Shown here in pieces: positions 43 to 62,253 of a DNA stretch of 64,000 nucleotides. A program made the position numbers and the translations under genes. The stretch covers positions 64,001 through 128,000 of IMG/VR virus record IMGVR_UViG_3300042555_002918. One strand, 5' to 3'. Origin of the DNA: a virus. Each line of letters opens with the position of its first letter. Position 1 is the stretch's first letter. The notes beneath the pieces were generated by a model. The model worked only from the letters and a program-made list of their open reading frames with translations. It had not been told where the DNA came from and did no database searches.

Positions 43-77
43 AGTATGGCAGGTTATTTATAAGCCTGCGCATTACT
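43..77 (-). promoter_or_regulatory. Degenerate GGTAATG-class promoter with a nested late promoter, pointing off the window edge
   Basis: - strand AGTAATGCGCAGG-N16-CATACT; TATAAATA (55-62) lies inside the spacer. Confidence 0.55.
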
Positions 78-126
78 TTTCTATCGAGAACCACTGCGGG
101 CAAGAGAAGCCCCGGAAGTAAGAATT

Positions 127-161
127 AAAAGGGAGTGCGCCCTTATGAGACGCACCCCCTT
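127..161 (-). terminator. Intrinsic terminator
   Basis: - strand GGGGGTGCG...CGCACTCCC hairpin followed by TTTT. Confidence 0.6.
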
Positions 162-228
162 CGTGTCAAAGTACAGCTTGTGGCAGTACCAATCCTTAAG
201 ATGTGAAGTTTTGTTTACTTGGTATAAG

Positions 229-432
229 TCACCCTAATTTTTTCTTGTCGTTACTTTCAGATGGAGCCATAACTGAAACTACCGTTCCTGAAATTTGGTT
301 TATTCGCAAGGCTCGTAAATGGTAATGGTGGCGAGTGTCGGAGCTGTGCAGTGGAAGCTCTACGCTGTCAACGCATGATGGGTAAGTGTAACCCGATTCT
401 AAATGCCTATCGCGAACGAAAGAATTGGTCAT
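229..432 (-). CDS. Small hypothetical protein (67 aa)
   Basis: Preceded by CATAAATA (466-473) and GGAG, followed by a terminator; no recognisable domain. Confidence 0.4.
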   Translation of the reverse strand: MTNSFVRDRHLESGYTYPSCVDSVELPLHSSDTRHHYHLRALRINQISGTVVSVMAPSESNDKKKLG

Positions 433-513
433 GTCGTGGTTCTCCAGACTTAACCGTACATTGGTTATTTATGAAATGTCGAAGAGGTTATCTCGGGAAT
501 ATTTCTTCCTCCC

Positions 514-521
514 TATAAATA
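514..521 (+). promoter_or_regulatory. T4-type late promoter
   Basis: Perfect TATAAATA upstream of the PQ-loop gene. Confidence 0.75.
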
Positions 522-561
522 ACCTTTGCCTGTATACGCTTTTTAATAGGGAGAGGTCCGA

Positions 562-3422: not shown

Positions 3423-3425
3423 AGG

Positions 3426-4121: not shown

Positions 4122-4126
4122 GTGGC

Positions 4127-10932: not shown

Positions 10933-12642
10933 CTAAAACTTAATAACCGCACGAAGGATTTCAGTCTGATTAGGAGCGCGAAGGACCGCTCTTCTATTGT
11001 CTATATAGAGAATGTCACCAGACAGCGGATCAATCTCTGAGGAGATCAAGCCACCGACGGTCACCACTGCTGATGCATTGCTCGAATCTCCTCTAATAGA
11101 CATCCCACCCTGAAATGGGACATACCCGGTAGAGGCATCCTGATAGTAATGTATGGTTGCATCAGTGGAGCCTGGGCCTTCAACGATAGCGATGATCCGA
11201 GCCGTGGTCGTGACAGTTCCTATTGTCCCGGTAATGGCCTCATCTGGTTGAAATGCACCTCCAGCTCCGGCTGACACGTTGGAAAGCATTAGTCCTTTGC
11301 TAGCTCTCAAGGTTTGGCTATTAGCTAGTTGCCCAGCAGATGAATTTACATCTCGGATAAGTCCAATTTGGCGGTAATCATTGGAAAGTGGAAAGTCTCC
11401 CGAACCATCATCAAACGGCAGGCGAGCCACAATCATCACATAACAAGCGTTCAATTCCCGCTCGATGTCAGCTCCATGACCCTTGATTGGGGAAACCTGA
11501 GGAGCGACTATAGCTGGAGTGCCTGTCGTACCACCCGAAATTTCAGCAGTGGCATGGGTGTAACCAACGCCCGCATCAACAGGAACGACTTTGGAAATTT
11601 TCTTGGTCAAGGAATCGACATACGCTTTTGCGGTGGCGCCGGTGCCATTCCCTGTTACGATTACCCGAGGTAATATTTCAAAGGTAGTGCCTGCTGCAAC
11701 GTCCCAAGTACCGTTTATGGTAATTGTGCGACTTGATGCAGTGTAAGCCTGTACTAGAAATGGGCCAGATGGGAAGCCGACGCCTCCTGTAATCCAGACG
11801 TGGCATCCGACGTAGGCCCCATCAATTATTGCAAGTCCTTCAACTAGTGGGAGAACTGCTGAACTTGTACCTGCGTCATCAAAAGCGCCCGAAAGTACGT
11901 TTACATATCCATTTCCAAGGGATGGAAGTAGATAGGAATCGATTGACCCCGGCGTAGCCGTCGCCTGAACATCTGACTGGTTTGAAAGGTCATTTTCAGT
12001 AAGGGTTTTAACTGGTAGCCACTGGTTTGTTAAAAAATTCTGAGTCTGCGAGTTCGTTACCGTCGCCAGATACTTCCAGACGTACCCATCAACAGTTGAA
12101 ATGGTATACGGAGGGTTCAATGGCAAGGTTGGCTTAACGATGCTCTTTGCTCCGTTATTGTTCGAGAGGCACTTAAAGATGTGGTACTCATCTGTAATAA
12201 CGTAGTGACTTCCGGCGGAATAGCTTCCATCAACGTTAGCTACTTGAATCTCCTCCTGGGTTGGGTGGTTAAAAAGAACCGGGTCGGCCACATTGTACGG
12301 GGCATACACGGTGTTTCCCGACTCGTCCCAGTTGTAGCGACGAACAACCAGAGTAGCATCAACATCACGAATCTTTTTTAGAGCAATCATGTGCTCTCGT
12401 GCTTCAAGGTCCTCTCGCACTGAGTTTTGAGGAGTGGGAGGCGATGTTTCAGAAACCACAGGGTCTCCTACGAGATTCGTAGGCCACTCCTTAGTGCGTC
12501 CAATGAAGATGTAGTGATTCCGATCCACCTTATGCGAACCGTCCTCTGCCGTTTGTGGCGGTGTAATAGGATGGTTTACCAGATTTTCAATGAAATCTTG
12601 GGCGTTTCGGAGCCTTAGATTTGGGGTAAGTTTAGCCGTCAT
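10933..12642 (-). CDS. gp8: Baseplate wedge subunit
   Basis: YIFIGRTKEW, RRYNW, FKCLSNNNG, DGYVWKYL, GDILYIDNR. Confidence 0.85.
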   Translation of the reverse strand: MTAKLTPNLRLRNAQDFIENLVNHPITPPQTAEDGSHKVDRNHYIFIGRTKEWPTNLVGDPVVSETSPPTPQNSVREDLEAREHMIALKKIRDVDATLVVRRYNWDESGNTVYAPYNVADPVLFNHPTQEEIQVANVDGSYSAGSHYVITDEYHIFKCLSNNNGAKSIVKPTLPLNPPYTISTVDGYVWKYLATVTNSQTQNFLTNQWLPVKTLTENDLSNQSDVQATATPGSIDSYLLPSLGNGYVNVLSGAFDDAGTSSAVLPLVEGLAIIDGAYVGCHVWITGGVGFPSGPFLVQAYTASSRTITINGTWDVAAGTTFEILPRVIVTGNGTGATAKAYVDSLTKKISKVVPVDAGVGYTHATAEISGGTTGTPAIVAPQVSPIKGHGADIERELNACYVMIVARLPFDDGSGDFPLSNDYRQIGLIRDVNSSAGQLANSQTLRASKGLMLSNVSAGAGGAFQPDEAITGTIGTVTTTARIIAIVEGPGSTDATIHYYQDASTGYVPFQGGMSIRGDSSNASAVVTVGGLISSEIDPLSGDILYIDNRRAVLRAPNQTEILRAVIKF

Positions 12643-12738: not shown

Positions 12739-12814
12739 ATCCTAACGAATTGCAAAGTTCGTTGAGCATTACCTTTTGGGGTAATGGGAGAGAGTGTGCG
12801 GAAAGTGTCACCAT
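12739..12814. promoter_or_regulatory. Back-to-back pair of GGTAATG-class promoters
   Basis: - strand GGTAATGCTCAAC-N16-TAGGAT (12773-12739); + strand GGTAATGGGAGAG-N16-CACCAT (12780-12814). Confidence 0.6.
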
Positions 12815-12820
12815 GGGACC

Positions 12821-13378
12821 ATGGCAATATGGTTCATCTCAGATACGCATTTTGGGCATAAAAACATCATCCGATATTGCAATCGTCCCTTTAAAGACAT
12901 TGAGGAGCAGACCGAGGAAATTGTTAAAAATTGGAACGCGGTGGTTTCAGCCAGGGACCACGTGTTTCACCTAGGGGATGTGGGATACGGATCTCCTCAA
13001 TATTTATATCGAGTGCTAGAGCGGCTTAATGGAAAGATTTATCTGATTAAGGGGAATCACGATTCTGCCGTTATTAGGAACCCGGCATCTCAGCGATTTG
13101 AGTGGATCAGGGATACTCATCTCTTTAAGGCTCAAGTGACAGGAAAGACTTACAGGTTATTCCTATCGCACTACCCACACCGAAGTTGGCCTGAATCAAA
13201 CCGGGGATCATTTCATCTTTTTGGGCATACCCACGGCAACATGGCTCCCTACGGACTATCATTTGACGTAGGAGTAGACAGTAACAACTATAAGCCACTA
13301 AGCCTTGAACAAGTGGCCGAACGGATGTCACACATGGCTATTGAGTTAGACTATGCTCAGAGGAAGCCCAACTCCTAA
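12821..13378 (+). CDS. Calcineurin-like metallophosphoesterase
   Basis: SDTHFGH, HLGD, KGNHD, SHYP, FGHTH, DVGVD; likely start MAIWF at 12821. Confidence 0.9.
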   Translation: MAIWFISDTHFGHKNIIRYCNRPFKDIEEQTEEIVKNWNAVVSARDHVFHLGDVGYGSPQYLYRVLERLNGKIYLIKGNHDSAVIRNPASQRFEWIRDTHLFKAQVTGKTYRLFLSHYPHRSWPESNRGSFHLFGHTHGNMAPYGLSFDVGVDSNNYKPLSLEQVAERMSHMAIELDYAQRKPNS

Positions 13379-16199: not shown

Positions 16200-16287
16200 G
16201 CTAACGCCCCTTCAACTACAAGGGTCCTATCGTCCGGCTTCAAACAAAGCTTAACATTTTTAGCTGAAATTTTTCAAGATTGCTTAA

Positions 16288-19727: not shown

Positions 19728-20030
19728 CTATTCCCGAGTTAATGGGGAATCAACATCACCATTTTCAACAATTTTCACCTGCTCATAGGGACCAACATGA
19801 TGTCGGTACATTTCAAGTTTAGCGCACTCAAGGATGCCGGTTATTTCATTGAAGTCCGTGTAGTTTGGAAGCCTGTCCCCGTAAACCTCCAATATCAGCC
19901 GCGAAATGATGTAATTGATCTGTCCGGCTGGGGACTTTCGCTCCTCTGAAATGAATCGCTTTACTTCCCCTGCCAAGGCACCAACTTTAGCGTCGTATCG
20001 TTCTCTGTCGTTTTGTGGAATGTACGGCAT
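19728..20030 (-). CDS. Conserved phage hypothetical protein
   Basis: MPYI..., GQINYII, GILECAKLEMYR, PYEQVKIVENGDV. Confidence 0.7.
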   Translation of the reverse strand: MPYIPQNDRERYDAKVGALAGEVKRFISEERKSPAGQINYIISRLILEVYGDRLPNYTDFNEITGILECAKLEMYRHHVGPYEQVKIVENGDVDSPLTRE

Positions 20031-20052
20031 AAACACCTCTAATAATGGGTAC

Positions 20053-20087
20053 AGAATACCCAGTATTAGAGAGCGCCGGACATTACC
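20053..20087 (-). promoter_or_regulatory. GGTAATG-class promoter
   Basis: GGTAATGTCCGGC-N16-TATTCT. Confidence 0.75.
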
Positions 20088-21241: not shown

Positions 21242-21478
21242 TTATTCGCTCTTCACGCCCTCTCTCTCAAGAATTGCCAAAGCTTCATCCAAATCCATAA
21301 AAGAGGAGATATCAAATTGATCCCGTTCACCTCGTACTAGCACCTCTCCCTTACACCGAAGCTCAAGGCGGCCCTGGCGGAAATGGATCTCAATTTGTTT
21401 TTTGTTTGAAAGACGTCCAACCCAGGACGATGGACAACTAAAGGAGGTCTGAGTGAGGCTTGCCTTTACAATCTTCAT
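21242..21478 (-). CDS. Hypothetical protein
   Basis: ORF downstream of a GGTAATG-class promoter. Confidence 0.55.
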   Translation of the reverse strand: MKIVKASLTQTSFSCPSSWVGRLSNKKQIEIHFRQGRLELRCKGEVLVRGERDQFDISSFMDLDEALAILEREGVKSE

Positions 21479-21537: not shown

Positions 21538-21572
21538 ACGCTATCAGAACTATCAGTAAGGCGAGCATTACC
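21538..21572 (-). promoter_or_regulatory. GGTAATG-class promoter
   Basis: GGTAATGCTCGCC-N16-TAGCGT. Confidence 0.7.
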
Positions 21573-24419: not shown

Positions 24420-25057
24420 TATTCCCCTTCATCCACGGCAGCCGGACTACCTTCGGAATGAACAGTCTGCGCTCCTTGTTCCTCTCCGAGTTCAAGGAGG
24501 ATTTGGGAAAACAGCTCCCTGTCCTTTGGTGAAACCCTAAAGTCATGATCAAGAGTTGCACTCATATTCATAAGAATATAGCCAAGGGCGTCATGAATGT
24601 AGTCGATACAAAGCCTCTTGGCCTCATCTGAGAGGTCTTGTCTTGCTTGAATGTTTTCTCCTCCTGAAGAGGCAAACACTCCAATCACACTTGTAAGCAC
24701 TGACATGCCAATCATGTAGCCGAATGACTTACCGATCTTTATGAGCCTGTGTCCCTTCTCCAGGCTTGAAAACGTCGTCCCTCGACGTGCCAACACTTTT
24801 TGGACCATCGGCGTAGCCATTGCGGAAAACCTCATGCTTTTGTCGCTTGGGTCGTGGATAAACACCTGCAACGTTTTGTCGAGCTTAGCGGCGAGCTCTG
24901 CTACGGGACTCTTTCGCACTTCCCTAACAGCCCTTGCCGAAAGCCTTAAAATGAGAGTACCAGCCTCAGAAACCCCTTCAGTCAGAGCTTGCTCAAAAGT
25001 CCTTTCCTGAATTTTAGCTATGGTGCCTTGAGTAGTTGTCATCGTCGGTTCTTCCAC
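24419..25057 (-). CDS. Hypothetical protein
   Basis: ORF coupled between primase and dam. Confidence 0.55.
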   Translation of the reverse strand: MEEPTMTTTQGTIAKIQERTFEQALTEGVSEAGTLILRLSARAVREVRKSPVAELAAKLDKTLQVFIHDPSDKSMRFSAMATPMVQKVLARRGTTFSSLEKGHRLIKIGKSFGYMIGMSVLTSVIGVFASSGGENIQARQDLSDEAKRLCIDYIHDALGYILMNMSATLDHDFRVSPKDRELFSQILLELGEEQGAQTVHSEGSPAAVDEGE

Positions 25058-26037
25058 TTAATCATTTTTAGTCTAGCCGCTTGTCCCTTATGGGAATTTG
25101 AAAGGATAAACGCCGATATTTCCCTCACGGTTGCGCCGTTCTTGACCATCTCGTTAATGTCCTTACCTTTGAAGGGACAGTCTGCCCAAATACAAACCGA
25201 CCGATCCTCACTTAGAGCCTTCTCCATGTTCTTAACGATCTGAGGATTTTCCGGCTCGTTGTCGAATATCAGTATTGAGTTTACGTCGGGAAACGATCTG
25301 CAGAACATTCCCAGCTCGGCATGACAGACCGCTACTGCATTAGGGAGGAACAGTGCATCAATTGGCCCTTCGGTCACCAAGACCGGCAGGTTGGGATTCA
25401 TTCGTTCAAGACCAAAGAAGCACTTTTGATCGTCGCTTTTGGCCGTTGCATACCGAATGGGAGAGCCGTTCATACTCCTACCGGAAATAGCGACGAGCTC
25501 CCTTTTGGTGTTGTAAATCGGGATAACTAATCTCTCATCTTCAGGAAATCGCCCGCCCTTACCGGGAAACACCTCTTCTACAAGCTCTCGGTAATTAGCT
25601 GTGTAAAAGAGAAGCTTGTGTCGAGAGGAAGGAATTTGCCGGGAGGAGACGTACATTCTGGCTACGTGGTCCTCTGGAAGAGAGAGAATGTTTACCATCC
25701 TATCGTAGCTATCTTTCTTGACCGACACTAGCTTAGGGATGAATGTGAACTTATAGCTTGGCTCCTCTTGTACCGATTCCTTTCTCCACTCTGACCAGGT
25801 GCCTTCGTCCAGATGCCGGAGCAGGCTGCCGAAGCTTTTTGCCTCTCCGCAGTTCTGACATTTAAAGAAGGTCTTCCCCTGATACACGTAGACGTATCCG
25901 CGAGCTTTCCATCTGACTTTCTTTGAATCGCCACACAGTGGACATGAGAAATTGGCCTTGAATTGCTCAAGCTCTTTGAAATTTCGCAGACGATGCGAAA
26001 CCAAATTCAGGAATTTGAAATCCGTGTGTACACCCAC
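25039..26037 (-). CDS. gp61: DNA primase (likely GTG start at 26037)
   Basis: CPLCGDS Zn ribbon, CQNC, TEGPIDALF, FDNEP, KDINEM. Confidence 0.92.
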   Translation of the reverse strand: MGVHTDFKFLNLVSHRLRNFKELEQFKANFSCPLCGDSKKVRWKARGYVYVYQGKTFFKCQNCGEAKSFGSLLRHLDEGTWSEWRKESVQEEPSYKFTFIPKLVSVKKDSYDRMVNILSLPEDHVARMYVSSRQIPSSRHKLLFYTANYRELVEEVFPGKGGRFPEDERLVIPIYNTKRELVAISGRSMNGSPIRYATAKSDDQKCFFGLERMNPNLPVLVTEGPIDALFLPNAVAVCHAELGMFCRSFPDVNSILIFDNEPENPQIVKNMEKALSEDRSVCIWADCPFKGKDINEMVKNGATVREISAFILSNSHKGQAARLKMIKWKNRR

Positions 26038-26043
26038 GAGCAT

Positions 26044-26132
26044 ATAGTACATGCCGTGATCTATAGCCGGGCATTACCCAACCCTGCTTTGTCAAAAGGT
26101 AATGTTCTCCGCCTTTGCCGATTAGCTAACCT
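26044..26132. promoter_or_regulatory. Back-to-back GGTAATG-class promoters (primase / ardC)
   Basis: - strand GGTAATGCCCGGC-N16-TACTAT (26078-26044); + strand GGTAATGTTCTCC-N16-TAACCT (26098-26132). Confidence 0.7.
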
Positions 26133-26221: not shown

Positions 26222-27097
26222 ATGGCTGTAAAAACTGACATCTACGAAATCATTACTGAGCGTATTATTTCCCGCATTGAGAGTGAGGGTACGTTACCTT
26301 GGCAACAACCGTGGGGGAACTATCAAGGTGTCTCGGGCCAGCCTCAGAACTTTGTGACTAAAAAGCCATACCGGGGATGTAACGTCTGGATTCTTGCCGC
26401 TGCAAACTATCGCTCGCCCTATTGGTTAACTTTCAAACAGGCTCAATCTTTGGGAGGGACCGTCAAGAAAGGCGAAAAGGGCGTCCCAGTGATCTATTGG
26501 CAGTGGATAGAGAAAAAGGACAAAGAGGGAGAGAGAATCCCCCTCCTTCGATATTTTACAGTATTTAACGTAGAACAGTGCGAGGGATTCGAGGTTCCAC
26601 AGCTTGAGGAAGCTCCTGTTAACACCGACCAGGGCTTTGAGTCTGCAGAGAGAGTCATTGAGAACATGAAGAATCGACCGAAAATAAGATTTAACGGTCA
26701 TTCTGCCTACTACTCTCCTTCGGAAGACCTTGTCGTAATACCGAGTAAGTCCGACTTCACTTCGACAGCTGAGTTCTACAATACGACTTTCCATGAGCTT
26801 ATCCATTCGACCGGCCACTCTAGCCGATGTGCCAGGATGAAGACTCTTCAAGACTGGAATAGGTATGGCTCAGACCCATACGCTAAAGAAGAGCTCGTCG
26901 CGGAGATGGGGGCGAGCTTCCTCTGTGGAGTCGCTGGGATTGAGTCAAAGGTCGAGGATAACAGCGTAGCCTACCTTCAGGGGTGGATTAGCCGTCTTAA
27001 AGGGGACAAGAAGCTCCTTATACAGGCGGCAGCACAGGCCCAGAGAGCAGCGGACTACGTGCTTGGGACAACCGATAACAACGAACAGGAGGGATAA
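26222..27097 (+). CDS. ardC: ArdC-family antirestriction/ssDNA-binding protein
   Basis: PWQQPW, YRGCN, WLTFKQA..LGGTVKKGEKG, VFNVEQ, HELIHSTGH, EELVAEMGA. Confidence 0.92.
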   Translation: MAVKTDIYEIITERIISRIESEGTLPWQQPWGNYQGVSGQPQNFVTKKPYRGCNVWILAAANYRSPYWLTFKQAQSLGGTVKKGEKGVPVIYWQWIEKKDKEGERIPLLRYFTVFNVEQCEGFEVPQLEEAPVNTDQGFESAERVIENMKNRPKIRFNGHSAYYSPSEDLVVIPSKSDFTSTAEFYNTTFHELIHSTGHSSRCARMKTLQDWNRYGSDPYAKEELVAEMGASFLCGVAGIESKVEDNSVAYLQGWISRLKGDKKLLIQAAAQAQRAADYVLGTTDNNEQEG

Positions 27098-35181: not shown

Positions 35182-35490
35182 TTAGGAAATGATACCGCCT
35201 CCTGAGTTGGGGGTAATTAGGCCGCTTGTCTTCTCCCTAAACGCGGCATCGATTTGAGCGTTGGGTGCCATGGAATAGTGAATTGCATTTTTTGGTAGTG
35301 TCACATTCTTCGGGTCTTCAGCGAATGGGAACGCAACAAAGAAAGCTAGTCCAGGTTTGGTCGGGTCACCTGTCGGAACCACCTGGAACGCCAGAGCATC
35401 AAAGAATGTCACCGTGCCATCCGTGTTCTCAGATAACTTCGCAATCAAATATTCCCCTGAGTTAATGCGAACCACTTTAGTATCTGCCAT
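35182..35490 (-). CDS. Conserved T4-like small beta-barrel (Sm-like) protein
   Basis: KVVRINSGEYLIAK ... SGLITP pattern. Confidence 0.55.
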   Translation of the reverse strand: MADTKVVRINSGEYLIAKLSENTDGTVTFFDALAFQVVPTGDPTKPGLAFFVAFPFAEDPKNVTLPKNAIHYSMAPNAQIDAAFREKTSGLITPNSGGGIIS

Positions 35491-35498
35491 ATGGACTC

Positions 35499-35795
35499 CT
35501 ATTTCATAAACACATAAGCCCATAGGGCCGCTGAAAGCATGTAGAGTAAGTTTATCCGACTGATAAGCTTGCCCAGCATTACCAATTCCCGACTTGCCCT
35601 TTTCACATACAGTAAAGTTACAATCGCTAGCCCTTTAACGGCGACAAGGGCCGTCCCTGGCCCAATTGCGTACATCAAAGACTTAATTAGCGGATTACCC
35701 TCAACCTCCATTCCAATTCCAAGACAACGCACTCCTGCATACGTAAATAATCCATCAATGACCTGGAGGATGATGTGTATGTGAAAAGGGCACAT
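35499..35795 (-). CDS. DUF5658-like membrane protein
   Basis: LQVIDGLFTY.G...EGNPLI; hydrophobic. Confidence 0.65.
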   Translation of the reverse strand: MCPFHIHIILQVIDGLFTYAGVRCLGIGMEVEGNPLIKSLMYAIGPGTALVAVKGLAIVTLLYVKRASRELVMLGKLISRINLLYMLSAALWAYVFMK

Positions 35796-36533: not shown

Positions 36534-37031
36534 CTACGCGGGAGCAGCTTTACGGGGCACCTTGTCAGGTGGCTTTTTGGTCTTTTTAGGTTTCGGTTCA
36601 TCTTGGGCTTGAAGGTTTTCGCCCTGGTCATCTGCCGTACTGGTCTCCCCCATGCCAAGGGACGACATGATCTCGTTGAAGGCCTGCTTAGCCGATTCAT
36701 CAGACGAGAATTTTATTACCTCAGGCAAAAACCCTGTGGTGGAAACAACTACCGATGCATTTTCGAGGTAGAGGGCAGTGATAAGGTCGAAGCGAAAAGT
36801 CACCGCACCAAACGTGATGAATGGAACGTCCTTCTGGCTTGAGCGGACCAAGTTGCAGATATCACGGTAGAGCGCTGAAGCCTTTTCAGGATTCTCTTCG
36901 GAAAACGAGAAGGCTTGCGGGCGGTCTTTTACCGATAACTTCACCTGGCTTGTTGCCAGATCAAGAGAGATTCGGTTTAACTTGGCTACCGATACTGCGA
37001 CGTCGTTAATTCTTATAATTTGTAGCGTCAT
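36534..37031 (-). CDS. Hypothetical protein with two internal repeats
   Basis: Start MTLQII with RBS GAGGAG; repeated F-S/E-x-x-E-x-A pattern. Confidence 0.6.
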   Translation of the reverse strand: MTLQIIRINDVAVSVAKLNRISLDLATSQVKLSVKDRPQAFSFSEENPEKASALYRDICNLVRSSQKDVPFITFGAVTFRFDLITALYLENASVVVSTTGFLPEVIKFSSDESAKQAFNEIMSSLGMGETSTADDQGENLQAQDEPKPKKTKKPPDKVPRKAAPA

Positions 37032-37035
37032 ATCG

Positions 37036-37302
37036 TTACGCTCCTCTCTTAATTCGGTCGACGATGTAGCGCCGGAACGCCCTCGCTTCGGAGATTCGAA
37101 ATGAAAGGGAGTAACGTTGGTACTCGGCTGGGGCGTATCCAAGTACCCTTTGAATATGCTCTGCTTTTCGTATCAGCGCCCCAAGTTGTCCCCCAACAAA
37201 GAAGAGATCATCAAGGGGAAGCTCAATTGCCGCTTCGTATACCGTGCGTGCCGAAATAGCCTGGTAGAGCTCCAAAAGAATGTCCTGGATATCATCAGTC
37301 AA
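37036..37302 (-). CDS. Hypothetical protein (TTG start downstream of promoter)
   Basis: RBS GAGAGG 7 nt before TTG; promoter at 37329-37363. Confidence 0.5.
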   Translation of the reverse strand: MTDDIQDILLELYQAISARTVYEAAIELPLDDLFFVGGQLGALIRKAEHIQRVLGYAPAEYQRYSLSFRISEARAFRRYIVDRIKRGA

Positions 37303-37328: not shown

Positions 37329-37363
37329 AGGGTACGTAACGGCGACTGATGCCGAGCATTACC
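37329..37363 (-). promoter_or_regulatory. GGTAATG-class promoter
   Basis: GGTAATGCTCGGC-N16-TACCCT. Confidence 0.8.
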
Positions 37364-37926
37364 TTTTCAGCGACAAGTTCACTTTTTGTGATGCTCGGAC
37401 CTGGATTGGCTAAGTTACGCGACTTCTGTTTCATACTGCTCCACGTCGAATATCGGTCTTGCACAGAGGCATTGAGGCACATATGCTCAAGTCCTTCGGC
37501 CCGACCTTGCTTCAGGTCTGGATAGATTCGGCAGCCTTCAAACAGCGCGTAATACGAAAAGCTCTGGTCGACCGCCCCAAAAGGGAAGAAGTCAATAGAA
37601 ATTCGATGAGATACGTCGAGTAACTTTTTTTTCAATTAAATAGCGCCCGTTTGTTATCTATGCGAAATCACATCAGCTCCTAGTGAGCTTTTGACGTGTT
37701 TTGCCTGTAACTGAGAGGTACTCGTAGAGACAGGTTCCGCATTTGTTTTTGGCGGTACCCGGGCTTGATTCGACGTTCTTCGTTTTTTGAATAACTTGTT
37801 GCCGATCTAAGCGTGTTGTGTGCCGCTTACAACTCTGATGCCAGTCATCATGTTGCGAATGGCACATGTTCAGCCGAGAATCCTGCCAGTAGACCCGAGC
37901 GTGAATCCGCAGATATTGACAGAGCT

Positions 37927-38109
37927 TTAGGTTCTAATGCCGAGGGAGATTTTGAATTTGGTACTCGCAGTGCTGATTGAAATCTTGCTGGCGCAGATTG
38001 AGTTCTTGTCGGGAAACAAAGACACTTCAATGTCTCGGATATGGATGACCAGCCGGTATCCTACTCCCGCCGTCCCGTATCGTGTCCTGCGAACTCTTAC
38101 TAATCTCAT
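37927..38109 (-). CDS. Small basic hypothetical protein
   Basis: First ATG ORF downstream of the promoter at 38131-38165. Confidence 0.35.
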   Translation of the reverse strand: MRLVRVRRTRYGTAGVGYRLVIHIRDIEVSLFPDKNSICASKISISTASTKFKISLGIRT

Positions 38110-38130: not shown

Positions 38131-38165
38131 GTGATAGCAGAACGAGACAGGTGCCGAGCATTACC
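38131..38165 (-). promoter_or_regulatory. GGTAATG-class promoter
   Basis: GGTAATGCTCGGC-N16-TATCAC. Confidence 0.7.
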
Positions 38166-38804: not shown

Positions 38805-38839
38805 GGTAATGCTCGGCGCTTAATGCTCTCCCGTAGGCT
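38805..38839 (+). promoter_or_regulatory. GGTAATG-class promoter
   Basis: GGTAATGCTCGGC-N16-TAGGCT. Confidence 0.8.
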
Positions 38840-38878
38840 GGTCAAACTGAAATTAACCGTTTTTTACGGAGTTTGAAC

Positions 38879-39085
38879 ATGGCAACGAAGAAAGCAGCAA
38901 AGGCGACCAAGGCAAAGACAACGACGGCAGGGAAATCTACGGCTGAGATCCTCACCCAGACAAACAGCCGAGTGGCTTGCTTAAGCGCAGCAAAGAAGAA
39001 GGCAGCTAAGAAGAAGGCAGCAAATCGGGTGGTATCGCTTTTGACCCGAGCAAAGGCAGCGCTTCTTCGCCTTGTGGGTCGTTAA
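38879..39085 (+). CDS. Small Lys/Ala-rich basic (histone H1-like) protein
   Basis: KKAAKATKAK, AAKKKAAKKKAA; RBS GGAG. Confidence 0.6.
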   Translation: MATKKAAKATKAKTTTAGKSTAEILTQTNSRVACLSAAKKKAAKKKAANRVVSLLTRAKAALLRLVGR

Positions 39086-39681: not shown

Positions 39682-40003
39682 TGGTCATAAAATGGTCCAA
39701 AACATCGAAAAACACGTAGCGAAAAGTGGCTACAAAGAGCAAAAACGAACGCACAAACCGTTAGGAGTTTTGCTTTGAAAAGTGTGGTGTTTTAGGGGAA
39801 TAAATAACCATTTCAGTGAGATAGAAATGGAGCGGGTGAAGAGATTCGAACTCTCGACCTCTTCCTTGGCAAGGAAGACAGTCGAGAGTTAGATTCGAGG
39901 TGAGACTACCTTAACCTGCTGATTTACCTACCCTTATCACCTTCTCATTTTTCAAACATAGGTCAAAAAAGGTCCGTGGTCCAAAATGGTCCAAATTTTG
40001 ACC
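39682..40003. mobile_element. attP: Phage attachment site attP (tRNA-Gly core with integrase arm-type repeats)
   Basis: TGGTC(C/A)-A-rich repeats at 39682, 39693, 39960, 39977 and 39987, inverted copy at 39996-40003; IHF consensus at 39912-39924; adjacent to integrase. Confidence 0.8.
39828..39877 (-). pseudogene. 3' half of tRNA-Gly(GCC), the attP identity segment
   Basis: - strand CTTCC-TTGCCAA-GGAAG-AGGTC-GAGAG-TTCGAAT-CTCTT-CACCCGC-TCCA; D-arm and 5' acceptor strand absent. Confidence 0.9.
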
Positions 40004-40019: not shown

Positions 40020-40054
40020 GGGAATGTTTGAGCGTTCGTCATAGCTCTTAAGTT
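40020..40054 (+). promoter_or_regulatory. Variant GGTAATG-class promoter for integrase
   Basis: GGGAATGTTTGAG-N16-TAAGTT. Confidence 0.5.
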
Positions 40055-41180: not shown

Positions 41181-41391
41181 GTACCCAGACTACGTAAAAG
41201 CCCAAGACCTAGCAGATGAATTTGGAATAGAGCCATTGCTAGCCAAGGCAATGATTTACTTCCGGCAGATCAACGGCCTATGCGATGCGGGAGCTATTAT
41301 GATTTTGCATGGCTCAAGGGTCATGATCCACAAGGAGAAGTTCCAGAACTGGATGGAACGAAAAAAGCTTCCAAAGAGCGTCATCTGGTAA
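41167..41391 (+). CDS. Excisionase/RDF-like winged-helix protein 1
   Basis: YVKAQDLADEF..NGL..GA..GSRVMIHKEKFQNWM; overlaps end of int. Confidence 0.6.
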   Translation: MRPCKYPDYVKAQDLADEFGIEPLLAKAMIYFRQINGLCDAGAIMILHGSRVMIHKEKFQNWMERKKLPKSVIW

Positions 41392-41421
41392 TGTTGGAGC
41401 GATGATCGTAGTTGATAAATT
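41387..41421 (+). promoter_or_regulatory. Variant GGTAATG-class promoter for xis-like gene 2
   Basis: GGTAATGTTGGAG-N16-TAAATT. Confidence 0.6.
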
Positions 41422-41453: not shown

Positions 41454-41675
41454 ATGACAAACGACACCGCTACAATATCCAATCTTCTAACACCAAAGCA
41501 GCTTGTGGAGCGTCATCGGTGGCTGACAATGGGTACTCTCAGGAAATACCTTTTTCACCGAATGTACAACGGTCTGGCTGAACAGAAAGTTGTCATTGCT
41601 CTATCTCAAAAGAAGCTTTTGATAGACGAAGCGCGGTTCATAAATTGGGTCAGATCTCATGGTCCCACCTGCTAA
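41454..41675 (+). CDS. Excisionase/RDF-like winged-helix protein 2
   Basis: LLTPKQL..LTMGTLR..NGL..KKLLIDEARFINWV; RBS GGAGG. Confidence 0.7.
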   Translation: MTNDTATISNLLTPKQLVERHRWLTMGTLRKYLFHRMYNGLAEQKVVIALSQKKLLIDEARFINWVRSHGPTC

Positions 41676-41739: not shown

Positions 41740-41774
41740 GGTAATGCTCGGCGATTAGTCCACTTCCCTACCCT
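41740..41774 (+). promoter_or_regulatory. GGTAATG-class promoter
   Basis: GGTAATGCTCGGC-N16-TACCCT. Confidence 0.8.
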
Positions 41775-41780: not shown

Positions 41781-42374
41781 ATGGAACAGCGCACATTACA
41801 AATTCCTCAGGAGTTCATTTTAGAAGGTGAAGAGTGGAAGCCAATGCCAAAATATCCCGACCTCTTCGGCATTTCCAACCTAGGGAGGTCATGGAGCATT
41901 ACGAAGCAAAAAATCATCAAGCCCTGGAAAGATAAAGACGGGTATCTCCAATATCGCAATTACGTAGCAGGCCTGGACTGTATGATTTCCTTTAGACCTC
42001 ACCGCGAAGTGGCTGCTGCCTTTATACCCAACCCACACAATTACCCTCAGGTTCACCATATTGACGACGACAAGCTTAACAACTCAGCTTCTAACTTGAA
42101 GTATGGCACAGCCAAAATGAACCAACTGGATGCTGAGAGAAATAAGGTAGAGGGCTACGCTCATCGCAGGGCAGTCGTTGGGATTCATATCGAGACCGGA
42201 GAAAAGAAAAGATACCCAAGCGTACGTGACGTTGAGAAGGACGGCTTTAACTTCAGTAACGTCCGCCAGTGCTGTAAGGGCAAACGGCACAAAGCTCATG
42301 GGTACAGGTGGAAATACGCCGACGAGGCGAATGTTTCAAACATGTTCTTGGTAGATAAAATCCCTGCCGAATAG
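41781..42374 (+). CDS. NUMOD4-HNH-NUMOD1 homing endonuclease
   Basis: EEWKPM..ISNLGR, HREVAAAFIPNP..VHHID.DK.NN..NL, CCKGKR..AHGYRW. Confidence 0.88.
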   Translation: MEQRTLQIPQEFILEGEEWKPMPKYPDLFGISNLGRSWSITKQKIIKPWKDKDGYLQYRNYVAGLDCMISFRPHREVAAAFIPNPHNYPQVHHIDDDKLNNSASNLKYGTAKMNQLDAERNKVEGYAHRRAVVGIHIETGEKKRYPSVRDVEKDGFNFSNVRQCCKGKRHKAHGYRWKYADEANVSNMFLVDKIPAE

Positions 42375-51482: not shown

Positions 51483-51794
51483 CTAGGTCAATTGCGAATG
51501 TTGGCGCTTTCCAAATATGATTGTCGTACAGTCCCCGGCAACTGGGTTCACACTTGTAATCTGGGTAACAAAGATAGCAGGCTCAAAAGCTCTTTCTTTG
51601 ATTTTCTCGACTGAGTCTTCGTCGTTAATTGAGCATTTCAGGACCAATCCGCTGTTTATCTCAATAGTGAAGTTCTCCATGCTGGGATTAAGAATTTGAG
51701 TAATCATCCCGTACAGGGGATAGATTTTACCGATTTCCACCTCGCTAGCTTCCACGGTCAGTCCAAATTTGTTGAAGAAATCGTCGTCACTCAT
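51483..51794 (-). CDS. Hypothetical protein, probably host-derived
   Basis: DDDFFNKFG..VEIGKIYPLYGMIT..KERAFEP; own promoter. Confidence 0.65.
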   Translation of the reverse strand: MSDDDFFNKFGLTVEASEVEIGKIYPLYGMITQILNPSMENFTIEINSGLVLKCSINDEDSVEKIKERAFEPAIFVTQITSVNPVAGDCTTIIFGKRQHSQLT

Positions 51795-51832: not shown

Positions 51833-51867
51833 AGCATAACGAGGTCATTTGTGTGCCGAGCATTACC
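51833..51867 (-). promoter_or_regulatory. GGTAATG-class promoter
   Basis: GGTAATGCTCGGC-N16-TATGCT. Confidence 0.8.
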
Positions 51868-52348: not shown

Positions 52349-52374
52349 ACCCCCTCTAAATATCCGCTAACCGT

Positions 52375-53216: not shown

Positions 53217-55124
53217 CTAAACCCCGACATCCACAATCTCGCAGGAGCCTCCAACACAGGCAAAGTCTCTATCCCCGCCAGTTGTAGTCTCTGCAGTCTC
53301 GTAGCTACGGAGCCCTGACCAATCAATCTCTGTTGGGACCTTGGCCAGGAAGTCTGCATACTGCTCCTGATTTATTGGCTGATATGGAGCTTGCTCATAC
53401 ACATGGTCATCAAACGGCAAGAAGCTTACTCCTGATATCTCGTCAAAGTTATTCCACACCCATGCCTGAACCTCCGGCCATTCGTACTCTTTCACCTGAA
53501 TAGTGACGCTTGGCTTATGTTCGCACCAATAAATTTGATACGTCTTCCAGATCTCTAATTGCTGAATGGCATTAAGACTATCGGAGACAATAGCATCCTT
53601 TGGGGATTCCATCGGAAATGAGAACACAAATACGCTATCTGGCCTCATCTTATCGTCCTCGACCGGAAATCCAGAATCTTTCATGAACTGAGCCAATGGA
53701 TCCTTCTTGTCGGCTCTGACCGTCCGAATGTAATAGTGTGAGAATCGAGTGTGGATGCCCGAAGACGCATTAACTAATTGAGAGACGGTACCCGACGGCT
53801 TTACGCATGTTACTGCCGTGGCCTGATTGATGCCTAGCTTACTCGACCACTCCTTATTAACTGCTACGGCATGGTCTTTAAGCTCTGCGAGGAGGCTAGG
53901 TAGCTTATCAGCATCCACTTGTCCGGACATCATAAGATTATCCATGATTCCGGTGAGGGACACACCAAGAAGGCGCTCCTCTTCGCAGTTCTGGGTCCAT
54001 ACCTTCCTGAGAAATTTGAAGTCGGTAAGGGTCGCTTGAAGGGTGCCAAGTATCGAGGCAATCCTAACCTTTCTGAGTAAAGACTGTTTAGTGTCATTTG
54101 CCCTTACTACAACCTCAGAGAGGTTACAAAATTGCCCGGGGCGCAATATGATCTCTGAGCAGGGGTTACATCCCCAGTCGTTCCGGGGCTCTCGTCTTCC
54201 ACTTCTGGCTACCTGCTTTGCAGATGCAATCCGATTAAAGATCCCACGCTCGCCCGACTTTGAGTCATAGAGCGCGAGCCACTCCCTCATGAATTGTCCA
54301 ACATCAGGCTTTTCGTTGTATACTGCTGAATTATTGGCAAGGGAGCGGTATCCATGTGTCATCCAGAATTGCCCGCTCTTAGCATGTCTCATCAGATCAT
54401 CCGATGGACTCGAAAGCGATATGAGTGCTGAGCGCCTAACTCCTCCAACAACCACAACATCCCCAATCTTACAGACGATGTCATGGACTTCGAGAGAGTT
54501 CAATTTCCGCCCTGCCGCTCCCTTAAATTTCGCGATTGCAAACTCACAAAGTGACTTGAGAGGCTCTGGTCCCGATGCCCTTCCACCGAATGTCTTGAGG
54601 CGAGCTCCGGCTGGTCGAATCTTGGAGTAGTCAATCTTTGGCTCCAGTCCTAAGTACAATAGTGAGATGAGCTCTTTAAACCCCTTTGCCCACCCAATCT
54701 TCGAATCTGCAAACACGATCGTAGTGTCCGTTGGAAAGATATGTTCAGGAACTACAGGAAGCTTAGATACTGCTCCATGCTCTACGGAAAACCCAACTCC
54801 AGTTCCGCACAGAAGGATGTAAAGGACCTCAGACAATGCGACAGGATCATCGATGGAAACGTACGCACAGTTATAGGCACAGACGTTACACCGCTTTGCT
54901 GCCGGTCCGGCCGTCATAAGCAACCGCATAGATGGCATAACCTCAAGGGTCTTTATGGCATTGGCAATCTCTACAGTTGTCTCATCGTCGCAATTCGGCC
55001 TAACTAGAAAATCAACGTAACGGTCAACCGTTTCTTCCCACGTTTCTCGTCTACCAAGGTCATCTCGAAAGCGAGCATATCTGGAGAGTGCAATGAATGT
55101 CTGATAATTTGTTGGGAGGGCCAT
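53217..55124 (-). CDS. nrdJ: Class II (B12-dependent) ribonucleotide reductase, monomeric type
   Basis: RRETWEETV, MPSMR, GTGVGFS, GGVRRSALI, NPCSEI, CNLSE, TCVKPSGT, C-terminal CxxxxC. Confidence 0.93.
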   Translation of the reverse strand: MALPTNYQTFIALSRYARFRDDLGRRETWEETVDRYVDFLVRPNCDDETTVEIANAIKTLEVMPSMRLLMTAGPAAKRCNVCAYNCAYVSIDDPVALSEVLYILLCGTGVGFSVEHGAVSKLPVVPEHIFPTDTTIVFADSKIGWAKGFKELISLLYLGLEPKIDYSKIRPAGARLKTFGGRASGPEPLKSLCEFAIAKFKGAAGRKLNSLEVHDIVCKIGDVVVVGGVRRSALISLSSPSDDLMRHAKSGQFWMTHGYRSLANNSAVYNEKPDVGQFMREWLALYDSKSGERGIFNRIASAKQVARSGRREPRNDWGCNPCSEIILRPGQFCNLSEVVVRANDTKQSLLRKVRIASILGTLQATLTDFKFLRKVWTQNCEEERLLGVSLTGIMDNLMMSGQVDADKLPSLLAELKDHAVAVNKEWSSKLGINQATAVTCVKPSGTVSQLVNASSGIHTRFSHYYIRTVRADKKDPLAQFMKDSGFPVEDDKMRPDSVFVFSFPMESPKDAIVSDSLNAIQQLEIWKTYQIYWCEHKPSVTIQVKEYEWPEVQAWVWNNFDEISGVSFLPFDDHVYEQAPYQPINQEQYADFLAKVPTEIDWSGLRSYETAETTTGGDRDFACVGGSCEIVDVGV

Positions 55125-55480: not shown

Positions 55481-55521
55481 AAGATCCTCTACAAAACGTT
55501 TATAACGGTTTCGATGCTGCA

Positions 55522-55556
55522 ATGTTCACATAGTAATGGGTGAGCCGAGCATTACC
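55522..55556 (-). promoter_or_regulatory. GGTAATG-class promoter (weak -10)
   Basis: GGTAATGCTCGGC-N16-GAACAT. Confidence 0.65.
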
Positions 55557-55576
55557 TTTTGTTATTTCGTAGACTG

Positions 55577-56469: not shown

Positions 56470-56471
56470 GG

Positions 56472-57872: not shown

Positions 57873-57873
57873 T

Positions 57874-59206: not shown

Positions 59207-59218
59207 TTGTCGAACTCC

Positions 59219-59635
59219 TTAGTTTTTTCTTTCCTTCCAAAATCTCTGAAGGTGCATGAACACCCATTGGTCGAAGTGACTCATTTCTCCGCTCACTTGA
59301 AGCTCAATATAATTACTTCCAACCTCAACGATGGGCTTGCCTTCAATCATGAACTTTATTGGGCTCTTTCCTCTTTCAAACTGCGCACCATGAACAAACG
59401 ATGAGATTGATTCATAAATCATCTCGGCAAACTCTTTGCTGGTTTTCTCAGGAAACCGGTCCCTTTCAGTGTGTAAACCGGTGGCAGTCACTGTGGCTAT
59501 CTTACCGTGAGTGCCATGCTCAAAATTGATTGTATGATCAACAACCGACTTCATATCAGACGTGGAATCCAACGATTTATCTTGGCTGTTTACTGGTGGG
59601 ATGTAGCTGTGAAACATGCGTTCCTTAGTCGTCAA
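59219..59635 (-). CDS. Hypothetical protein
   Basis: Coupled to the gp43 stop. Confidence 0.5.
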   Translation of the reverse strand: MTTKERMFHSYIPPVNSQDKSLDSTSDMKSVVDHTINFEHGTHGKIATVTATGLHTERDRFPEKTSKEFAEMIYESISSFVHGAQFERGKSPIKFMIEGKPIVEVGSNYIELQVSGEMSHFDQWVFMHLQRFWKERKN

Positions 59636-62192
59636 AAATGCCCATAACGCTCTTGGGTGCCCCTACTTCGCTCCATCCGGTTGCACGAAGAAGGATATTT
59701 AGCGGTCCAACAAAAACCTTATTGAACTGCCCCTCATAGTCGATCCACTCTCTCAACTGTAGCTCCTTTGGAACTTTGTCCAACATTCCCATTACATGGC
59801 TGCGAAATGGATTTTGCTCCTTTAAATAAAAGAATCTCATACGGTCTCCGGACTTTATCGTGTCGTACTTTCGGTTGAGCTTCTTTTCGGATAGGAATCG
59901 GTTGTATGTAAATGCCGCCGCAACCTGGATGGGCGCTCCGCGCTCTAGGCCCTTTCTGCCCCCGACTTCGACGGTATCTTCAAAGGTGATGCAGTTTTTA
60001 CTGCTCAGGAGAGCCGTATACTTGTCTATGTCGCTTACGTTTATCGGGTAGCTGATGGTTTCTAGGGGAAGGGTTTCAAACTTTTTGCGATAGTCCGAAA
60101 CGAGCCCCTGCAGATCGCTACTTTTCCCCTTGAGAATCACTTCAGTTGCATTATTAAGCCACTCTTTAAAGACCTTGGATGTCGTACTCTTGATCATCTC
60201 AAGCCCCGTTGCCTTTCGCTTAGGCTTTGGATACCTAGTCCCCTCCTTGTCCCAAACCTCCATGAGGTACTTTTTCTTGGATACAAAGATTGTATCTTCC
60301 GCTATCACGTCCCGAACCATATCAAGCTGCTCAGTAAACGTGTTGTATCGATCTCTATGAATAGATAGCCCCTCACGGATCCAGACGTATATCTCTTGGC
60401 AAAATTCCTTGTCGATTCGCTCGACTATTTCAGCTGATGTTAATCCTTTGGGTAAGGAGTCTACGTACGACTTGGCTGATATGTAGAGGGAGTCGGTGTC
60501 CCCGTAGAGAATCGGATCCCCGGCACTTTGATACTTTTCCTGGATGCGCTTTGTTATTGTGTCCTTGACGGTAAGAAGAACAGCTCGACCTGACAGTGTG
60601 ACGCTTCGAGCTAACTCAGTATCATAGAATCGAAAATACTTACTGCCTAGCGAACCGTACGCCGCATTAAGCTGAATCTTTTTGGCACTTTGAAAGTTAT
60701 TATACTTCGTTGCCTCGGCGTCGTACTTTATTCGCTCTTCTGGGGTAGTTGCTTCAATTGCCTTCCTCTGCGCTTCTTTCATTTTGGCTTTATAAGCCAT
60801 GCGATCGTCGAACAGCCGTTTCATAATGTCCCCGAGGAACCCGGCTTTGTCCCTTCTAAAAAGCCATCCAGCCCCAGAGCACGTTGCGTCGAGTTCCTTT
60901 AACATGGACAGGTCTTGGGCACGCGAGACCATTCCCTCTTCGTCGAATTTTACCTTTCCCTCCAGAACGGTATCAATATGACGGGAAATGGTATCCGGAG
61001 ATATGTTGTGTTCCCGTATTAGGGATGGATACAGAGAGGCAAAGTCAAAGTTTACTACCCACTTGTGCTTACCAACTTGAGCCGGGAGAACGAAGGCTCC
61101 CTCATACTTGTCGTTTTTGTCATGCTCAATGAGTGGAGGGACCGCTACCTTTCGCTTCTTAAGCTCATTAAAGGCTATGGTATCCCACATTCTGACTTGC
61201 TGTTGGACGTCAGCAAAATTACACAAGGAATCATATGCGGTAGTAATGACCACATCCGCAAGTTTTAGCTTAGCGTCGAGTTTTTCAACGAGAGCAACGT
61301 CCTGGACGTTATACTCAATAAACTTGTCATAATCTTTTGTATAGAGGTCATGAAGAGTTCCGTCATAATCGACCTTAGTCTCTCCTAGCTCAAGCTCAGC
61401 AACAAACTTAAGAGCATCGCTTTCCGCCTTTGGCATGTAGCGACGGTATAGGTCGATGTAGTCTAACGAAACAATCCCTACGATGTCATAGGTAGCGATT
61501 TGTCTGCCTCTGAAGTTTGCCCGTGTATCCCGAATAATCCCCCAAGGAGACAATGCCTTGGCCGCTCCCTTGCCAACAACGCGATTGATTCGATTGATGA
61601 TGTAGGGAATATCGTACTGATCCGTATTCCAACCAAACAGAATGTCGAAGTCTATGTCATCCCACCATTTCATGAACGCAACAAGCATCTCTCGCTCGTC
61701 TCGGAACTGCTTATACCTCACATCTGGTCGAGTTGGCCTATAGGGCTTCAGGCCAAATACATAGAACTTGTCGCGATATTTGACAGTTATGCTGATGATT
61801 GGTGCATAGGGATCTGAAGGAGGCGAAAACCCATTGGAGCTGTCAACCTCGATATCTAAGGTTACCTTGCGGATAAGGTTCATATCGAAGTCGATTCCGT
61901 CCCCGAACTTGTCGGATAGGTAGGTAAAGTGCCACCGGGTATTTCCAAAAAGATACTGATGCTGCACTGCCTCATTAGAAGACATGAATTTTCGCGCCTC
62001 TTCTATTGAATCAAATGTGAGCTTCTTTACCGGCCGATTTCTGATGGTTCTGTAGGGCGTCTCTTCATTAGTAGGGACAAATAGACTGGGGCTATAGTCC
62101 GTAATTTGCTTCGATACGCGCTTATTATTTTCGTATCCCCTGTAGTAGATACCCTTTATGTTCCCGTAAACGTGCGTGTAGAAGCTGGCCAT
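59625..62192 (-). CDS. gp43: Family B DNA polymerase
   Basis: DIEV, DFASLYP, KIQLNAAYG, YGDTDS, KKKY. Confidence 0.97.
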   Translation of the reverse strand: MASFYTHVYGNIKGIYYRGYENNKRVSKQITDYSPSLFVPTNEETPYRTIRNRPVKKLTFDSIEEARKFMSSNEAVQHQYLFGNTRWHFTYLSDKFGDGIDFDMNLIRKVTLDIEVDSSNGFSPPSDPYAPIISITVKYRDKFYVFGLKPYRPTRPDVRYKQFRDEREMLVAFMKWWDDIDFDILFGWNTDQYDIPYIINRINRVVGKGAAKALSPWGIIRDTRANFRGRQIATYDIVGIVSLDYIDLYRRYMPKAESDALKFVAELELGETKVDYDGTLHDLYTKDYDKFIEYNVQDVALVEKLDAKLKLADVVITTAYDSLCNFADVQQQVRMWDTIAFNELKKRKVAVPPLIEHDKNDKYEGAFVLPAQVGKHKWVVNFDFASLYPSLIREHNISPDTISRHIDTVLEGKVKFDEEGMVSRAQDLSMLKELDATCSGAGWLFRRDKAGFLGDIMKRLFDDRMAYKAKMKEAQRKAIEATTPEERIKYDAEATKYNNFQSAKKIQLNAAYGSLGSKYFRFYDTELARSVTLSGRAVLLTVKDTITKRIQEKYQSAGDPILYGDTDSLYISAKSYVDSLPKGLTSAEIVERIDKEFCQEIYVWIREGLSIHRDRYNTFTEQLDMVRDVIAEDTIFVSKKKYLMEVWDKEGTRYPKPKRKATGLEMIKSTTSKVFKEWLNNATEVILKGKSSDLQGLVSDYRKKFETLPLETISYPINVSDIDKYTALLSSKNCITFEDTVEVGGRKGLERGAPIQVAAAFTYNRFLSEKKLNRKYDTIKSGDRMRFFYLKEQNPFRSHVMGMLDKVPKELQLREWIDYEGQFNKVFVGPLNILLRATGWSEVGAPKSVMGIFDD

Positions 62193-62218
62193 AGGTTTTC
62201 CTTGAAGTGAATGAACCT

Positions 62219-62253
62219 AGGGTAGAGAACTTGAGGGTTTGCCGAGCATTACC
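62219..62253 (-). promoter_or_regulatory. GGTAATG-class promoter for gp43
   Basis: GGTAATGCTCGGC-N16-TACCCT. Confidence 0.8.

Follow-up and report, generated by a model that had tools for sequence, protein, structure and literature searches.

We analysed a 64,000-nucleotide (nt) stretch of viral DNA, hereafter the window, which comprises bases 64001-128000 of a 145,388-bp IMG/VR virus record with terminally repeated ends (IMGVR_UViG_3300042555_002918), and we focus here on a 13-bp box that recurs upstream of its genes, mostly at one fixed distance from a TAnnnT hexamer, in the manner of a candidate promoter. The source is an uncultured T4-related lake myovirus: its genes match the gp43 DNA polymerase, a DnaB-type helicase, the portal, baseplate hub and wedge proteins and ribonucleotide reductase, with further matches to a primase, an ArdC-like protein, an HNH nuclease, the clamp, UvsY, a helicase and a gp55-like late sigma. 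The gp43 polymerase reaches ~36% identity at best to any cultured phage, with cyanophages nearest. Intergenic DNA makes up 9% of the phage genome, and an Rfam search of the window gave zero matches. An integrase gene adjoins the 3′ part of a tRNA-Gly(GCC) (window 39829-39879, reverse strand) in an attP-like arrangement; we regard the phage as a temperate T4-like one.

Box geometry and predicted start sites

The 13-bp box GGTAATGCTCGGC was found in seven exact copies in the window (0 in 100 shuffles) and, genome-wide, in 10 exact copies and in 17 at no more than one mismatch, where chance predicts none and a reversed control word gave 0. Its GGTAATG core occurred 57 times in the genome (16 expected), and 27 of these copies had a TAnnnT hexamer exactly 22 nt downstream, which is 16 nt past the 13-mer (0.34 expected; 50 Markov simulations gave at most 2). 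No other distance between GGTAATG and TAnnnT was enriched genome-wide, a co-oriented open reading frame (ORF) start lay within 250 nt of 26 of the 27 core sites, and most sites were intergenic; the random spacing or orientation that the first-pass annotation had named as fatal to its proposal of a promoter class was not what we found.

Counting letters position by position gave aaa-r-GGTAATG-C-T-C-G-g-C for the upstream part, then weak T, Y, n and G at -17, -16, -15 and -14, and then T-12, A-11 and T-7. The interior of the hexamer is G/C-rich, and the G at -14 and T at -17 form a partial extended -10. The 3′ half of the box falls into two groups, CTCGGC-like and TTTGAG/TTnnnn, and the information content of the box far exceeds that of a normal -35 element. 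Because the spacing enrichment belongs to GGTAATG at N22, the core unit is GGTAATG-N22-TAnnnT with a preferred CTCGGC extension and not a uniform 13-mer, and a promoter class of the form aaa-GGTAATG-(CTCGGC)-N16-TAnnnT is well supported on sequence grounds. Two other readings of the letters were set aside. NtcA-type (GTA-N8-TAC) and CRP-type sites were rejected by inspection, the second half-site being absent. The box also aligns with the sigmaE consensus, which we take to be GGAACTT-N16-TCTGA, and 'TYnG' (positions 25-28) could then be a sigmaE-like -10 with GGTAAT as its -35; against this, conservation is much stronger at TA...T, and a start 6-8 nt past TAnnnT agrees with the ATGs described below. 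A literature search with the 10-mer returned unrelated primer matches only.

At six of the 27 core sites, an ATG located 5-8 nt past the hexamer opens an ORF of at least 60 amino acids (aa), as against 1.3% of all genomic TAnnnT hexamers (binomial p=1.4e-6). Such starts belong, for instance, to the HNH gene (window 41781), to a DNA methyltransferase gene and to the gene for the 488-aa helicase that precedes gp55; the integrase gene (window 40062) has such an ATG behind a GGGAATG box, and two of these ATGs coincide with called gene starts in the relative L099. Since the ATGs stand where a sigma70-type transcription start would lie, some of the mRNAs would be leaderless, and since they stand 5-8 nt downstream of the hexamer, TAnnnT would act as a sigma70-family -10 element, of which it has both the form and the position. 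Transcription is predicted to start 6-8 nt past the hexamer, several genes having the A of their ATG as the predicted +1, and the ATGs thereby place +1 where the first-pass annotation, in stating what would refute it, had called for a start (about 6-7 nt past the hexamer). The 13-bp box would then span about -41 to -29, in place of a -35 hexamer. An ATG 5-8 nt past the -10 and without a Shine-Dalgarno sequence was seen at window 41781, 40062 and 12821 and at genome 29209, 49702, 56309 and 134412, and the phage and its relatives appear to use leaderless mRNAs often.

Within the window, boxes stand before numerous small ORFs and before the genes for the DNA polymerase, the primase, the ArdC-like anti-restriction protein, the HNH nuclease and the integrase; outside it, the genes behind boxes include the clamp, UvsY, the helicase-gp55 operon, the methyltransferase, an ATPase and an extracytoplasmic function (ECF) sigma. 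The first-pass annotation had listed gp43, primase, ardC, HNH and int among the downstream genes, all of which stand, together with a 'xis' and an 'antitoxin', for which no family match was obtained. Judging by these neighbours, some 30-35 box copies would drive pre-late genes as a counterpart of the T4 middle regulon, with functions in replication, recombination, nucleotide metabolism and anti-restriction and with the integrase, the late sigma gp55 and the clamp. Rigid spacing, orientation towards genes, ATGs at the predicted +1, conservation in relatives (see below) and T4-middle-like genes together bear out the earlier proposal of a dispersed promoter class serving a pre-replicative regulon, and we consider it very probable that the dispersed box-TAnnnT copies are a real promoter class.

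Predicted promoter sites across the window

All seven exact 13-mers reported by the first-pass annotation were recovered (37363-, 38165-, 38805+, 41740+, 51867-, 55556- and 62253-), and its list of hexamers (TACCCT three times, TAGGCT, TATGCT, TATTCT, TACTAT, TAACCT, TAGGAT and TAAATT) proved correct. The 16-nt spacing to TAnnnT, which it had given as exact, holds for five of the seven copies and fails for 38165- and 55556-. Its variants at 12773-, 20087-, 21572-, 26078-, 26098+, 40020+ and 41387+ are genuine, those at 77- and 12780+ are weak, and it had overlooked a copy at 35583- (GGTAATGCTGGGC-N16-TAAACT).

Five promoters of this class, here class I, combine the exact box with a TAnnnT hexamer. 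One (62219-62253, minus strand, -10 TACCCT) lies 27 nt upstream of the gp43 ORF (59625-62192), and two more on the minus strand precede a 103-aa ORF (51483-51794; promoter 51833-51867, TATGCT) and a 202-aa ORF (36534-37142; promoter 37329-37363, TACCCT). On the plus strand, the promoter at 41740-41774 (TACCCT) serves the HNH endonuclease gene (41781-42374), whose ATG lies 6 nt past the hexamer and whose mRNA is predicted to be leaderless, and that at 38805-38839 (TAGGCT) precedes a 70-aa ORF (38873-39085). The two exact boxes with imperfect -10 elements are both on the minus strand: 55522-55556 (GAACAT) stands before small ORFs and the ribonucleotide reductase gene (53217-55124), and 38131-38165 (TATCAC) faces small ORFs at 37673-38109.

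The remaining sites have variant boxes. The minus strand carries class I promoters at 35549-35583 (GGTAATGCTGGGC, -10 TAAACT), 26 nt upstream of a 113-aa ORF (35182-35523); at 26044-26078 (GGTAATGCCCGGC, TACTAT), at the start of the primase gene (25039-26052); at 21538-21572 (GGTAATGCTCGCC, TAGCGT), before a 78-aa ORF (21242-21478); at 20053-20087 (GGTAATGTCCGGC, TATTCT), before a 102-aa ORF (19728-20036); and at 12739-12773 (GGTAATGCTCAAC, TAGGAT), 97 nt upstream of a baseplate-wedge gene (10933-12642). Back-to-back with the primase promoter, a plus-strand class I variant at 26098-26132 (GGTAATGTTCTCC, TAACCT) precedes the ArdC-like gene (26222-27097). Two further plus-strand variants are the class I variant at 41387-41421 (GGTAATGTTGGAG, TAAATT), before a 73-aa ORF (41454-41675), and the GGGAATG box at 40020-40054 (GGGAATGTTTGAG, TAAGTT), whose hexamer ends 7 nt before the integrase ATG at 40062. 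Of the weak sites, the divergent variant at 12780-12814 (plus strand, GGTAATGGGAGAG, hexamer CACCAT) has an in-frame ATG 6 nt past the hexamer, in the ORF 12794-13378, and the weakest variant, at 43-77 (minus strand, AGTAATGCGCAGG, CATACT), is of doubtful membership. Beyond the window, two back-to-back boxes at genome 16563 (-) and 16588 (+) fall inside a 98-aa ORF call and are conserved, spacers included, in the relative L025; the boxes may be divergent promoters internal to a gene, unless the ORF itself was called in error.

Conservation, predicted host and candidate readers

Relatives were recruited through gp43 (80% and 73% identity) and through the ECF sigma (81% and 66%). Upstream of gp43, all three lineages (including L037 and L039) kept AA-GGTAATG, the 22-nt distance and TAnnnT and differed in the 3′ half of the box and in the spacer; upstream of the ECF sigma gene, the full 13-mer and the hexamer TACAGT were invariant in three lineages and the spacer had diverged. 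A 68.6-kb relative held five GGTAATG-N22-TAnnnT sites with varied 3′ halves (control word, 0). When IMG/VR was scanned for the exact box plus TA, 28 single matches were returned, L025 being the only true relative among them, and no other IMG/VR contig was found to carry repeated copies of the exact box. The scan having given L025 as the sole true relative, the exact box seems confined to this phage clade. The class I motif was also absent from the IMG/VR contigs L106-L113, which bear distant sigma homologues. Three of these, the T4-like contigs L110-L112 (77-169 kb), carry ECF-like sigma homologues of ~30% identity, and on inspection, (G/A)AAC-N16-18-TATAA strings appeared to recur in them and TATAAATA late words to be numerous.

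A 46-mer of the tRNA-Gly was found exactly in 27 species genomes, all of them freshwater metagenome-assembled genomes (MAGs) labelled Bdellovibrionota or "Deltaproteobacteria", several of which share a lake series with the phage relatives; because of this exact match, the host phylum is predicted to be Bdellovibrionota. The tRNA-Gly promoters of the predicted hosts are canonical TTGAC(A/T)-N17-TAnnnn, and five candidate host genomes (1.5-3.8 Mb) contained 1-7 GGTAATG-N22-TAnnnT sites vs. 0-4 for the control word, which is background. Given these counts, the box is not a host promoter form, and it has neither the TTGACA-like -35 at 17 ± 1 nt nor the recurrence of the same form in the host that would mark a host housekeeping promoter. 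In the phage genome, TTGACA (≤1 mismatch)-N17-TAnnnT is depleted (5 observed vs. 22.3 ± 4.4 expected; minimum of 15 in 60 simulations, with neighbouring spacings normal), which suggests selection against host-sigma promoters: the phage avoids the host promoter form and uses its own. The motif's absence from the hosts, their TTGACA-N17 tRNA promoters and this avoidance lend indirect support to the earlier suggestion that a phage activator or sigma reads the box and an ordinary host sigma does not; an unusual host sigma, which the first-pass annotation had offered as another reader, is the least supported candidate.

The dominant word classes upstream of phage genes are two only, the T4-like late word ATAAATAG and GGTAATG. 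A second intergenic motif, tGTTTGAAGGCkGACnA (class II), has ~19 copies genome-wide, oriented with the downstream genes, and lies in the window at 16245(-), 26160(+) (between the 26098+ box and the ArdC-like gene), 37543(-), 39473(-) and 43372(+). It is conserved in relatives, where the 66% lineage uses GTTTGAAGTC throughout, and is not enriched in the candidate hosts. TAnnnT follows at 16 nt in some copies, the spacing varying elsewhere; a few sigma70-like hexamer pairs overlap the motif, and three lineages share the leaderless ATG of a copy at genome 37092+. Class II may mark true early promoters or an operator set.

Searching the rest of the genome for sigma or activator genes, as had been advised, we found two sigma factors. 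The ECF sigma (198 aa; genome 31005-31601, L092:11005-11601; Sigma70_r2 71.8 bits, r4_2 56.4 bits) is encoded 33 kb outside the window, ~54 nt past the -10 of an exact box at genome 30916; the gp55-like late sigma was also found by the whole-genome hidden Markov model (HMM) search. The MotA N- and C-terminal domains and AsiA (PF09158, PF09114, PF09010) gave no match in six-frame whole-genome HMM searches at E-value cut-offs of 1 to 10, and a very diverged structural analogue of MotA/AsiA is possible. In a Pfam scan of 149 ORFs, the only DNA-binding matches among the 25 of 80 families listed were the ECF sigma and two Xre-type helix-turn-helix (HTH) proteins, and the Xre-type HTH protein sits in a DUF5753/DUF6879 pair, not in an immunity region.

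Orthologues of the ECF sigma (about 66-82% identity) were found in close relatives only, bacterial homologues reaching no more than 40%. The closest of the latter neighbour a zf-HC2 anti-sigma, and their upstream regions yielded no usable promoter clue; no anti-sigma domain was recognised in the overlapping 80-aa ORF 3′ of the phage sigma gene. The classical ECF (AAC...CGT), sigma28 and GAAAC-N16-ATATAA patterns were not enriched in the phage genome, and any multi-copy regulon of the ECF sigma must therefore use one of the two non-late motifs. Upstream of a DUF2786/DUF7168 gene that leads into the ECF sigma gene, we found a conserved GGrAAGGCTC-N19-cTATAAT element (genome 29480-29535, L092:9480-9535, plus strand) and no convincing terminator before the sigma gene itself, so host RNA polymerase (RNAP) could prime synthesis of the sigma.

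Weighing the possible readers

The reading we favour, at a probability of about 0.4, is that the box is recognised by the phage's own ECF-type sigma. As the predicted host's ordinary sigma does not appear to use the box, a phage-encoded specificity factor would read it, and for the ECF sigma speak its being the sole recognisable specificity factor without a regulon, the best-conserved box at its own gene and the rigid spacing. The sigma gene may first be transcribed by read-through from the conserved TATAAT promoter upstream of the operon, and its product would then activate its own gene, a positive autoregulation suggested by the position of the gene behind a perfect box conserved in relatives. 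The resulting cascade would pass from the host sigma to the ECF sigma on box promoters and then to gp55 on TATAAATA late promoters.

Bacterial ECF promoters combine a GGAAC-type -35, a 16-17 nt spacer and a CGT/GTC-type -10 with an autoregulated sigma gene, autoregulation being an ECF hallmark. The box promoters share with them the rigid spacer, the high information content and the sigma gene behind its own putative promoter, so that a cognate sigma is encoded and the same promoter stands at its own gene; GGTAAT and GGGAAT also loosely resemble GGAAC or GGAAT. They differ in their TAnnnT -10, in GGTAATG lying 22 nt away and in having no anti-sigma domain detected 3′ of the sigma gene; the AAC-type -35, the 16-17 nt spacer and the CGT/GTC-type -10 are not what the box offers. 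The sigma gp36 of phiEco32, whose C-terminal domain contacts -37 and -34, is a precedent for unusual geometry (PMC12276001). The proposed system would resemble it in a phage sigma acting on host core RNAP through a phage-only promoter word and in a cascade from host sigma to phage sigma, the unusually far upstream contacts (-37, -34) being phiEco32's; unlike gp36, a distant sigma homologue, our candidate has the usual two ECF sigma domains (Sigma70_r2 + r4_2), and its putative promoter word bears no relation to that of phiEco32 (AATGTA at -11.5) (PMC12276001).

Several points weigh against the ECF sigma as reader. TAnnnT, with its conserved A-11 and T-7, and the preference for G at -14 are a housekeeping-type sigma target, and the invariant GGTAATG lies 22 nt from the -10, more than the 16-17 nt of an ECF spacer. 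The usual -10 target of ECF sigmas is short and CGT- or GTC-like. The CTCGGC that does stand at the canonical -35 distance varies in some copies and in relatives. A sigma that reads its own promoter must have some other primer of its synthesis, and box and sigma were seen together only in three close, non-independent relatives. The predicted host assignment has the tRNA match as its one line of evidence, and start sites and timing are themselves inferred from the letters of the genome.

Several of these points fit a rival that we hold possible and somewhat less probable, in which the host housekeeping sigma would read TAnnnT and an early phage activator bound to the box would replace the -35 contact, by the MotA/AsiA sigma-appropriation logic of T4 with unrelated or unrecognisably diverged proteins. 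T4 middle promoters pair a MotA box, (a/t)(a/t)(a/t)TGCTTtA, with a TAnnnT -10 at 12 ± 1 bp, and the regulon driven from MotA-dependent promoters contains the same kinds of genes as stand behind our box (PMC2988021). A sigma70-type -10 with a partial extended -10 (G-14, T-17), a predicted start 6-8 nt past the hexamer and a regulon that parallels the T4 middle genes would all follow, and in both systems a phage box replaces the -35, is paired with TAnnnT, occurs in dozens of copies and precedes genes for replication, recombination and late transcription (gp43, gp45, uvsY, gp55). The first-pass annotation had held the box to be unlike the MotA box; this view needs qualifying for the letters, as TAATGCT in the box fits the WWWTGCT of the MotA consensus (PMC2988021) and gives both boxes a common core. 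It stands for the geometry, the TGCT core lying ~5 bp further upstream: the box ends 16 bp from the -10 and its TGCT-containing 10-mer 17 bp from it, not 12 ± 1. The phage box is also longer (13 bp vs. 9-10) and far more strictly conserved, it continues with CGGC, the interior of its -10 is G/C-rich, unlike host or T4 middle -10s, and several of its transcripts are predicted to be leaderless. Against an activator also stand the lack of MotA/AsiA domains even at E-value cut-offs of 1 to 10 and, among the 25 of 80 Pfam families listed, the lack of any DNA-binding family but the ECF sigma and the two Xre-type HTH.

Two further readings are less probable. Some pre-late class must be read on arrival, the genome has no canonical TTGACA-N17 class, and the ArdC anti-restriction and integrase genes bear the motif, all of which would be expected if these were early promoters for unmodified host RNAP (with a housekeeping or minor alternative sigma) and the box a strong, optimised upstream element, for which T4 early promoters offer a parallel; a subclass with TTTGAC or TTTGAG in its 3′ half even looks -35-like. 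Such a role is unlikely: the five candidate host genomes are at background level and the host tRNA promoters canonical TTGACA-N17, although the host identity is itself a prediction; the TTGA-like subclass would have a 15-nt spacer; and a few sigma70-like promoters and the second motif class could be the true early promoters. Least probable of those weighed is that the box is mainly an operator through which a lysogeny repressor silences all lytic promoters, overlapping the promoters, a function with which a promoter role may coexist. The dispersed asymmetric operators of P1 C1 and of mycobacteriophage L5 gp71 are comparable, the integrase and tRNA-Gly attP-like site are present, and the box is asymmetric, dispersed and orientation-biased, with an information content far above that of a normal -35; but a pure operator needs no single-bp spacing to a -10, which is nevertheless invariant at the 27 core sites, and no repressor was identified, the Xre-type HTH protein lying in its DUF5753/DUF6879 pair and not in an immunity region.

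A phage box in place of the -35, joined to a sigma70-like -10 and middle-type genes, is known already, as are phage sigmas with promoters of their own; what is new is the word with its geometry (-41 to -29), together with the predicted leaderless starts and the lack of any MotA/AsiA match. Textbooks use T4 as the example of a phage that reprograms host RNA polymerase; to our knowledge, MotA and AsiA are missing from most T4-related phages in nature, and little is known about how these time their replication genes. We offer, tentatively and as unlikely rather than likely in its full form, that in this phage MotA/AsiA has been replaced by a reader of new geometry (an ECF sigma using TAnnnT and a 13-bp element to -41, or MotA-independent appropriation) and that its lytic promoters are invisible to host RNAP, since the genome also avoids canonical host promoters.

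With a sharp promoter word, predicted starts, a defined regulon and one obvious candidate reader, the phage is a clean testable case, and E. coli offers a setting in which to express and test the candidate ECF sigma. If this sigma reads the box, promoter and sigma would form an orthogonal pair, and if it does so through TAnnnT and an element from -41 to -29, the recognition geometry of group-4 sigmas would be wider. Host-invisible lytic promoters, if true, would be a simple master switch for lysogeny, and a link between host-promoter avoidance and lysogeny in a T4-like phage would be of ecological interest.

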